Source: an uncultured Gammaproteobacteria bacterium (GTDB lineage Bacteria > Pseudomonadota > Gammaproteobacteria > JAURND01). Taken from it: DNA of 64,000 nt. The stretch lies in NCBI GenBank assembly GCA_963797335.1, contig CAWCOU010000006.1, forward strand, positions 760,483-824,482, written 5' to 3'. Shown piece after piece: positions 6,116 through 6,550 of the stretch (its first letter is position 1; each line of letters starts with the position of its first letter). Below the pieces are notes generated by a model. That model saw only the letters and a program-made list of their open reading frames with translations, was not told the origin of the DNA and searched no databases. The position numbers were made by a program, and so were the translations under genes.

Positions 6116-6550
6116 ATGCCTATCACTATTCATCCCAAATCTGGCCAAATTTTATTTTGTGATTTTTCGGCAGGCTTTAAAGAGCCGGAAATGGTCAAAT
6201 GCAAACGTCCTGTGATAATTCTTACCGATCTGATTAAAGGAAGGAATAACCTGGTTACTATTGTGCCCCTGAGCACTGTTGAACCCACCACAGTACAACC
6301 TTATCATTATAAAATTCCGAAACAATCAATGCCCATGATAGGAATGTTTCAAAATCATGACAGCTGGCTAAAAGGCGATATGATATACACGGTTGGCTTT
6401 CACAGACTTGATTTAGTGCTGCTTGGCAGGCGCAACTTACGAGGTAAAAGAGAGTATTTTAAGAACAGATTGGGCAGGGAACAAATGAAAAAAATTTATG
6501 AATGTGTTCTTCATGGTTTAAATCTTGGTAAATTAGGAGTACATTTATGA
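6116..6550 (+). CDS. MazF/PemK-family toxin-like protein (putative mRNA interferase); no cognate antitoxin gene evident
   Basis: 144 aa. The N-terminus SGQILFCDFSAGFKEPEMVKCKRPVIILT...VTIVPLST matches the MazF/EndoA signature (GD[IV]hhhDFxPxxGxExxxxRPxhVhS ... hhhhPhT). About 39% GC. Confidence 0.55.
   Translation: MPITIHPKSGQILFCDFSAGFKEPEMVKCKRPVIILTDLIKGRNNLVTIVPLSTVEPTTVQPYHYKIPKQSMPMIGMFQNHDSWLKGDMIYTVGFHRLDLVLLGRRNLRGKREYFKNRLGREQMKKIYECVLHGLNLGKLGVHL

Follow-up and report, generated by a model that had tools for sequence, protein, structure and literature searches.

A structured small RNA gene adjoins a PemK/MazF-family toxin gene in Gammaproteobacteria: a candidate RNA antitoxin

Introduction

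Proteins of the MazF and PemK type form the textbook type II toxin family, and members that appear as 'orphans' are usually dismissed as decayed or trans-regulated. A 64,000-nt stretch of contig CAWCOU010000006.1 from an uncultured gammaproteobacterium (assembly GCA_963797335.1), hereafter called the window, carries a gene of this family that encodes a protein of 144 aa, and an earlier note on this DNA had described it as a solitary or orphan toxin gene. That description does not hold, as a conserved gene for a structured small RNA (sRNA) of about 140 nt begins 54-59 nt past the stop codon of the toxin gene and is also present beside its orthologues. That the sRNA gene and its linkage to the toxin gene are real is, in our judgment, practically certain. 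The sRNA is a structured, covariation-supported RNA family absent from Rfam. With moderate confidence we favor the reading that the sRNA is the cognate antitoxin of the protein, the two forming a type III-like module built on a true MazF-family toxin.

The sRNA gene

A gene-free gap of 300-520 nt follows the toxin gene in every orthologous locus that was first fetched, and when these gaps were aligned, some 135 nt proved to be strongly conserved, with compensatory substitutions evident among them. A covariance model of this element (R1) has a single match in the window (6604-6749, 129.9 bits, E=3e-32), and folding of the window copy gave a minimum free energy (MFE) z-score of -3.86. The sRNA is preceded by a sigma70-like promoter, and a promoter of this type (at least 8 of 12 matches) is found at the same fixed distance in 49 of the 62 distinct full-length RNAs. 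A terminator scan placed an intrinsic terminator at 6720-6745, formed by the last helix of the RNA and a U-rich tail. Because the neighboring genes differ from locus to locus, tandem and convergent orientations both occur, and the promoter stands at a fixed distance, we regard the sRNA as a separate gene and not as the 3' untranslated region (UTR) of the toxin message. The features of the module are collected in Table 1, where loci outside the window are given by their L numbers.

The earlier note had described the DNA downstream of the toxin gene as a non-coding stretch ending in a strong terminator. Both the gap, which measures 422 nt up to the ABC transporter gene that begins at 6973, and the terminator are present, but the terminator lies in the middle of the gap rather than at its end, and the gap is occupied by the RNA gene rather than empty. 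A permissive scan of positions 5800-7050 against Rfam 15 (E<=10) returned nothing over 6600-6745 except a chance Histone3 match on the terminator; over 5800-7050 as a whole its matches were the tRNA and chance ones only, and a scan of the whole window at the gathering thresholds gave only rRNA and tRNA. No copy of the sRNA was found by blastn in isolated phages, plasmids, or E. coli genomes. No description of the pairing of toxin and sRNA was found in the literature, of which our coverage was incomplete, and an earlier description is possible.

Table 1. Features of the toxin-sRNA module in the window and of 5' domain copies in phage-like tRNA arrays (positions refer to the window unless a locus is named)
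Feature	Position	Strand	Basis or remark
tRNA-Ser(UGA)	5864-5952	-	163 nt upstream of toxin gene
Shine-Dalgarno-like AAGGA, 8 nt 5' of toxin ATG	6103-6107	+	read from sequence
Toxin open reading frame (144 aa)	6116-6550	+	open reading frame and Pfam PF02452
sigma70-like promoter of sRNA, TTGAAA-17 nt-TATACT	6574-6602	+	promoter scan
Structured sRNA, about 140 nt, candidate RNA antitoxin	~6609-6749	+	5' end inferred from promoter
Helix H1, CCUG/CAGG and inner UGC/GCA, variable loop	6613-6640	+	RNAalifold, pair counts
Near-invariant single-stranded junction, CAUUC(G/A)AGA	6641-6649	+	invariant columns of alignment A2
Helix H2 (CUACAC/GUGUAG), conserved 13-nt loop AAAGGUCCGCCCA	6650-6674	+	pair counts on A2
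Helix H3, 10 bp, loop with conserved GA(U/A)GACAA	6676-6712	+	compensation at 10 of 10 pairs
Predicted pseudoknot, 5' strand, AAGACAA in H3 loop	6691-6697	+	pairs with 6739-6745
Helix H4, GC-rich terminator hairpin	6721-6738	+	terminator scan; compensation at 3 of 6 pairs
3' tail UUGUCUU, U-rich terminator tract and pseudoknot 3' strand	6739-6745	+	pair counts
5' domain in phage-like tRNA array	L116 3058-3135	-	
5' domain in phage-like tRNA array	L105 3389-3511	-	
5' domain in phage-like tRNA array	L098 2105-2203	+	
5' domain in phage-like tRNA array, further copy	L039 101-258	-	
5' domain in phage-like tRNA array, further copy	L022 4081-4169	+	

Linkage of the toxin gene and the sRNA

The association was followed from both partners. 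Starting from the protein, the sRNA directly follows the toxin gene in 24 of 24 distinct loci with enough downstream DNA, at an offset of 20-80 nt from the stop codon and with toxins that are 38-100% identical. These loci comprise the window, four species genome contigs that came from a scan with a single-protein query, ten places in Legionella, Marinomonas, Thiotrichales, and metagenomes, and nine viral contigs whose toxins are 38-68% identical. Starting from the RNA, metagenomes were searched with a pattern of its 5' domain containing 17 specified bases; about half of the matches were due to chance, as expected, and true copies were those in which the complementary strand of H2 was present. 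An intact toxin gene lies within about 100 nt of approximately 41 of the 62 distinct full-length RNAs, in tandem in 33 cases and convergent in 8, where the 3' end of the RNA is 0-13 nt from the toxin stop codon. A frameshifted or truncated toxin gene adjoins five full-length RNAs (L004, L052, L077, L117, and L155), and about ten of the 62 are without a toxin gene. No toxin gene without the RNA was seen among the loci with enough downstream sequence, and such an asymmetry, RNA alone but never toxin alone, is by analogy typical of antitoxins. The RNA variants match the toxin clades, and the neighboring genes differ in every orthologous locus.

These observations bear on the idea that the protein is a true orphan, with a protein antitoxin acting in trans or with a domesticated, non-toxic role for the nuclease, and that the RNA is an unrelated hitch-hiker. 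Public annotation does present a type II PemK/MazF toxin without a partner, and the inspected portion of this genome amounts to 64 kb. However, at each locus reached through the protein and long enough on the downstream side, an RNA comes after the gene, in unrelated genomes and down to 38% identity, it varies with the protein clade by clade, and a partner in trans could not travel with so mobile a gene; we consider a true orphan highly improbable. Among four explanations offered by the earlier note, control in trans and a domesticated non-toxic homologue are thus disfavored by the obligate linkage, together with the conserved catalytic residues and the mobile contexts described below, and the one favored is an antitoxin hidden in the flanks as a small or unannotated open reading frame (ORF) or RNA, for which the conserved structured sRNA is the candidate.

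The close spacing of gene and RNA also raises the possibility of an antisense RNA of type I character, or of a cis-acting 3' UTR, terminator, or insulator of the toxin message, in either case without protein binding. The RNA is immediately 3' of the gene, and in the convergent loci the two transcripts could overlap. When the sRNA was paired with the toxin mRNA from -40 to +30 by RNAduplex at 40 loci, the mean z-score against shuffles was 0.07, so that complementarity to the translation-initiation region does not exceed that of the controls. Moreover, tandem and convergent arrangements both occur, the tandem transcripts do not overlap, the RNA has its own promoter, and neither an elaborate conserved fold nor occurrence without the gene is expected of a 3' UTR. 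This explanation is distinctly unlikely.

A protein antitoxin was likewise sought in the DNA around the toxin gene. No plausible antitoxin ORF was present in the 163-nt upstream gap or downstream, and the small ORFs of the flanks have no Pfam match. The upstream DNA is unconserved among 12 orthologous loci, in which no conserved operator or partner was found; the sole recurring feature in the alignment of these 12 regions is an A/G-rich patch, mostly AAGGA. The absence of a MazE/PemI-like ORF noted earlier was therefore borne out, in the window as in the orthologous loci. The downstream element itself might encode a small protein antitoxin and not an RNA, and many copies do contain an opposite-strand ATG, in the complement of the UUUGUCAU tail, that opens frames of 30-47 codons starting with MTKA. 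Across the sRNA copies there is no conserved reading frame, however: the frame, length, and strand of the longest ORF vary between copies, insertions and deletions in H3 shift the frame, the substitutions are base-pair compensatory and not codon-like, and the local small ORFs lack a Pfam match. A small protein in place of the RNA is extremely improbable.

Structure of the sRNA

The sRNA was aligned with MAFFT (alignment A2, 45 distinct copies), and the RNAalifold consensus consists of four helices, to which a pseudoknot between a loop and the tail was added for the pair counts. In A2, 95.8% of the cells are paired and changes on both sides occur at 22 pairs (162 cells). None of 500 shuffles reached the observed values, and sliding the structure by 1-3 columns left at most 33 compensated cells. 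Among 81 distinct sequences compensation is seen at 27 of 31 pairs, in an alignment made with the model and biased towards it. The third pair of the outer stem of H1 varies among UA, CG, and GC. In H2, every cell (100%) is paired and four of the six pairs show compensation (AU/GC in 19 sequences, CG/UA in 11, AU/GC in 7, and CG/UA in 2). The junction between H1 and H2 resembles a T-loop by its sequence (UUCGA).

The consensus tail UUGUCAU could pair with the conserved H3 loop AUGACAA, and a pseudoknot between the two is probable. As computed from the alignment, 91% of the cells of this pairing are paired, with compensation at two of seven pairs, which gives it moderate support. The combinations AUGACAA/UUGUCAU, AAGACAA/UUGUCUU (in the window), AUAACAA/UUGUUAU, and ACAACAA/UUGUUGU all preserve it, as do AGCAA/UUGCU and GCAA/UUGC in distant variants. 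The MFE fold of the window sRNA pairs the tail with CAAGAC of the junction instead of the H3 loop, an alternative unsupported in the other sequences. Three unpaired positions of the H2 loop (A2 columns 60, 69, and 72; window 6656, 6665, and 6668) change jointly from A..C..A to U..U..C in several lineages; this correlation is not of the Watson-Crick kind and may reflect a tertiary contact.

The most divergent copies show how far the structure can depart from that of the main clade. In the most distant toxin clade (38-43% identity; L156, L152, L157, and L148) the RNA is found at about 3435-3560 or 668-792, H2 is a short tetraloop hairpin and the junction is shortened, and H1, the H3 loop AUUGCAA, and its matching tail UUGCUUU are kept. 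Because of this short tetraloop, the 13-nt H2 loop appears to be specific to the main clade. In the viral loci L149, L150, and L153 the toxin gene, from 3001, encodes about 40 extra C-terminal residues, and the RNA-like region (3547-3669) is much diverged; the terminator is retained, as is an H3-like hairpin whose loop is GAGAUUGCAAUC, but the 5' domain is of another kind.

The toxin protein

The ORF of 144 aa pointed out by the earlier note, and the motifs quoted from it, are present in the window, and the assignment to the MazF/PemK fold held when Pfam was searched. The protein matches PF02452 (PemK_toxin) over residues 8-98 with E=1.8e-9 and 38.2 bits, above the gathering cut-off of 23.1. 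No significant match was obtained with it in NCBIfam, PADLOC, or the PDB sequence set, and for this reason we regard it as a divergent member of the family. An AlphaFold2 model built from 47 homologues has a predicted local distance difference test score (pLDDT) of 83.8. All of the 50 top matches to this model in a Foldseek search of the PDB are MazF, EndoA, or MoxT (target TM-score 0.65-0.80, E down to 9e-7), and those to Staphylococcus aureus MazF, Bacillus subtilis MazF/EndoA, and MoxT reach 0.75-0.80 at about 18-21% identity. In E. coli MazF, R29 and T52 are catalytic residues. An hhalign comparison with the K-12 record, of 7% probability and limited to the N-terminal half, places R31-P32 of our protein on R29-P30 and S53 on T52, and R31, P32, and S53 are invariant across the 47 homologues. 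By profile, fold, and catalytic residues the protein is a bona fide member of the PemK/MazF family, and from the invariant R31 and S53 and their alignment to R29 and T52 the toxin looks active. It is about 30 residues longer than canonical MazF and its clade has a conserved basic insertion, GKRxYF, with R112 and Y114 invariant, that canonical MazF lacks.

The search detected 365 protein homologues. The best 120 of these are 63-100% identical and mostly 142-146 aa long, and include proteins of L. pneumophila, L. longbeachae, a Thiotrichales isolate, Marinomonas, and many metagenomic Gammaproteobacteria. NCBI labels the homologues 'type II toxin-antitoxin system PemK/MazF family toxin', and JGI labels them 'YifN (PemK superfamily)'. 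In PHROG, the protein matches phrog_15698, of unknown function (E=5e-23). An exhaustive profile search yielded 909 clusters (50% identity) at E<=1e-3 and 510 at E<=1e-10. The group is a distinct clade of moderate size, separate from the bulk of MazF proteins. The E. coli K-12 gene yifN (b3777; L136 5013-5461, minus strand) was considered as an orthologue and rejected, as it is a pseudogene with 35% identity over 72 aa and no sRNA copy nearby; the namesake of the JGI annotation is only distantly related to the 144-aa protein.

Phage copies and the 5' domain

The RNA also occurs on viral contigs. Full-length copies without a toxin gene adjoin terminase genes in L015 and L016. A part of the RNA, the 5' domain of about 62 nt, extends from H1 through the near-invariant junction CAUUCGAGA to H2 and its loop AAAGGUCCGCCCA, and is found by itself in phage-like tRNA arrays. 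In the arrays it is co-oriented with the tRNAs, 2-9 nt past the 3' end of one and 3-6 nt ahead of the 5' end of the next, and no PemK gene was found near it in L116, L105, L098, L039, or L022. In L127, ARAGORN identified a permuted two-piece transfer-messenger RNA (tmRNA) gene (10836-11227, minus strand) with the tag ANDANYDGGFALAA, and the 5' domain (11045-11131) lies in its intervening segment, between the CCA end of the acceptor piece and the 5' end of the coding piece. The 5' domain stands alone in L114 and L095, where it is followed by a terminator, and in the phage contig L106 it lies upstream of terminase genes, with no terminator identified. The search pattern that yielded these copies came from this very domain, so its invariance among them is partly built into the search.

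Hepatitis delta virus (HDV)-like ribozymes occur in phage tRNA arrays and provide a model for another explanation, in which the RNA would be a ribozyme that cleaves itself, or else a processing signal, and would be linked to the toxin gene by chance. The small and highly conserved core, with its paired stems and invariant junctions, would suit a ribozyme, as would a position so close to tRNA and tmRNA ends. No known ribozyme family matches at E<=10, however, and by eye the topology does not fit the HDV-like type. The toxin-linked form extends from a transcription start to a terminator, so that cleavage is not needed, and the obligate linkage to a gene of the MazF fold is left unexplained. We consider a ribozyme very unlikely.

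The main rival to the antitoxin reading is a ribonucleoprotein or processing partnership, in which the RNA is the functional molecule, tRNA-like or regulatory, serving mobile elements or phages, and the PemK-like protein matures it, stabilizes it, or uses it as a cofactor or sensor. Three observations are in its favor. The 5' domain alone in phage tRNA arrays and in the spacer of the permuted tmRNA, with no toxin gene near, implies an activity independent of PemK; the single-stranded junction and loop show an extreme sequence conservation that is typical of RNAs with a tertiary fold or activity of their own; and the basic insertion is conserved in the protein and lacking in canonical MazF. Against it, no nuclease is needed to form the ends of the RNA, which is equipped with a promoter and a terminator of its own, and the protein retains the catalytic dyad of the toxin family. 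Loci with the RNA only or with a decayed protein gene are common and loci with only the protein were not seen, which fits protection from a harmful protein better. On balance we find this partnership unlikely, though it carries more weight than the other alternatives.

Genomic context

The module is a mobile two-gene unit found in mobile and defense-type contexts. It lies inside a Mu-like prophage in Marinomonas (L009), adjoins insertion sequence elements and a convergent AbiJ-like gene in L. pneumophila and L. longbeachae (L006 and L160), and is near integrases, PIN_12, and DUF6262 in other Legionella strains (L162-164). Elsewhere it stands amid housekeeping genes (L011 and L165). The AbiJ-like gene encodes a 269-aa protein with an AbiJ_NTD4 domain (L006 4822-5631 and L160 5831-6640, both on the minus strand) and follows the toxin-sRNA pair in convergent orientation, with different upstream neighbors in the two loci; the pair and this gene may be a small defense islet that travels together.

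In the window, the G+C content is 36-38% over 6000-6800 as against 44-50% in the flanks, in agreement with the earlier note, which had also given the 163-nt gap to tRNA-Ser correctly. This low G+C content and the PHROG match of the protein also speak for a mobile setting. Integration of the module at tRNA-Ser was considered and rejected: the tRNA has the module on its 5' flank, a search for direct repeats gave none, and no other locus adjoins a tRNA. The adjacency is incidental. Between the sRNA terminator and the ABC transporter gene (6750-6972) there are about 220 nt of AT-rich, unconserved DNA with no match in the orthologous loci and with promoter-like sites on both strands. An inverted repeat of 40 nt (5041-5080 and 5116-5155; arms 80% complementary and 35 nt apart) is found in the intergenic DNA that separates uvrC (3160-4989, minus strand) from a response-regulator gene (5171-5836, minus strand). 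Genes for 5S rRNA (60717-60832), 23S rRNA (60974-63893), and tRNA-Gly(GCC) (2444-2519) are on the minus strand of the window. Mimicry of host rRNA by the sRNA was rejected, as its local alignment to the 23S rRNA of the window scored 29 compared with 25.7 +/- 2.8 for shuffles.

Proposed mechanism

If the sRNA is the antitoxin, it would bind the toxin protein directly and block its RNA-binding groove, possibly by way of the invariant single-stranded segments, namely the junction CAUUCGAGA, the H2 loop AAAGGUCCGCCCA, and the H3 loop GAUGACAA. Once the module ceased to be transcribed, whether because a phage shut off transcription or because the element was lost, the sRNA would decay and the freed nuclease would cleave cellular RNA, so that growth would stop or infection would abort. 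On this view, phages that carry the whole RNA, or the 5' domain in tRNA arrays, would possess mimics of the antitoxin with which to disarm the toxin, and tRNA-processing enzymes would release the embedded 5' domain as a small RNA. A precedent for such a phage-encoded mimic is the pseudo-ToxI of phage TE (PMC5086642).

We favor the type III-like reading because the linkage is obligate, mobile, and independent of orientation, because the RNA is found alone and the toxin never is, and because the partners co-vary. It is favored further by the intact catalytic dyad, by the defense-island and prophage contexts, and by the phage copies, which recall the escape through pseudo-ToxI. It is possible, but a more tentative proposal, that the module represents a new class of RNA antitoxin, in which a single sRNA of complex fold, with its own promoter, restrains a genuine PemK/MazF nuclease and phages carry 5' domain decoys released by tRNA-processing enzymes.

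Several points weigh against an antitoxin role. Toxicity of the protein, its binding by the sRNA, and neutralization are predictions from sequence, as are expression of the sRNA and any part in defense. The rules of type III systems are broken, as a single non-repeated RNA with its own promoter, downstream or convergent, stands in place of an upstream array of tandem repeats. Since phages carry the 5' domain alone, it could serve a purpose unconnected with the toxin, and the nuclease could be an accessory. Classical antitoxins are labile, and a compact, pseudoknotted RNA might be stable. The counts of orphan RNAs are biased, since the pattern used to find the RNA was taken from the 5' domain of the main clade. 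Finally, a viral clade at 44% toxin identity (L149, L150, and L153) has only a weak and divergent RNA match in the same place (E=0.025).

Comparison with known systems

The toxin shares its fold, the catalytic Arg/Thr(Ser) pair, small size, and a mobile, patchy distribution with those of MazEF, PemIK, and Kis-Kid. Unlike in these systems, no gene for an AbrB- or RHH-type protein adjoins the toxin gene in the window or the orthologous loci, and for lack of a protein antitoxin the module is not type II. The pemK RNA motif of Rfam is also a conserved structure by pemK-family genes, where it is a 5' cis-regulatory leader in Firmicutes; the sRNA described here, in contrast, is a separate downstream gene with no match in Rfam 15. 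The toxin clade, with its approximately 900 clusters (50% identity) and including the proteins of L. pneumophila and L. longbeachae, has as its partner an RNA that annotation has missed, in place of a protein antitoxin, and toxin-antitoxin or defense finders that look for protein partners only will systematically miss such modules. The presence of the 5' domain in phage tRNA arrays suggests a new kind of cargo for these arrays.

In the AbiF-RCd22 system of Clostridioides difficile a toxic protein is neutralized by direct binding of an adjacent noncoding RNA (PMC12373285). As in our module, the RNA is adjacent and is other than a simple ToxI-like array, and the system is borne by a phage or prophage (PMC12373285). 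The differences are that AbiF belongs to an unrelated protein family (Abi_2/AbiD/F, Cas13-like) and that RCd22 is encoded upstream, represses transcription, and has two abiF motifs (PMC12373285); RCd22 and the sRNA have no similarity in sequence or structure.

In the type III systems ToxIN, CptIN, and TenpIN, the antitoxin consists of tandem repeats of 34-45 nt encoded upstream of the toxin in the same operon, with a terminator between the two (PMC5086642). ToxN and CptN share a core fold like that of Kid/MazF, and type III toxins and their RNAs co-vary clade by clade (PMC5086642). These systems act in abortive infection, from which phages escape by means of antitoxin-RNA mimics (PMC5086642). 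The module described here resembles them in its toxin of an endoribonuclease fold, its noncoding RNA, in which a pseudoknot has moderate computational support, its clade-wise co-variation, and its phage-borne RNA copies, all as read from sequence. In contrast, its toxin belongs to PemK/MazF in Pfam, the sole Pfam match, and not to ToxN, CptN, or TenpN, with no match in PADLOC, and its RNA, a single structured unit of some 140 nt, has a promoter of its own and lies downstream of the toxin gene or convergent to it; no tandem repeats were found at 5800-7100. Processing of the antitoxin RNA by its toxin, as in type III systems, would be hypothetical here. In function the module would be type III-like, while standing outside ToxIN, CptIN, and TenpIN. 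If the RNA is indeed the antitoxin, this module would link types II and III as an intermediate at the level of sequence, and the chemistry of the antitoxin would be swappable on one toxin scaffold.

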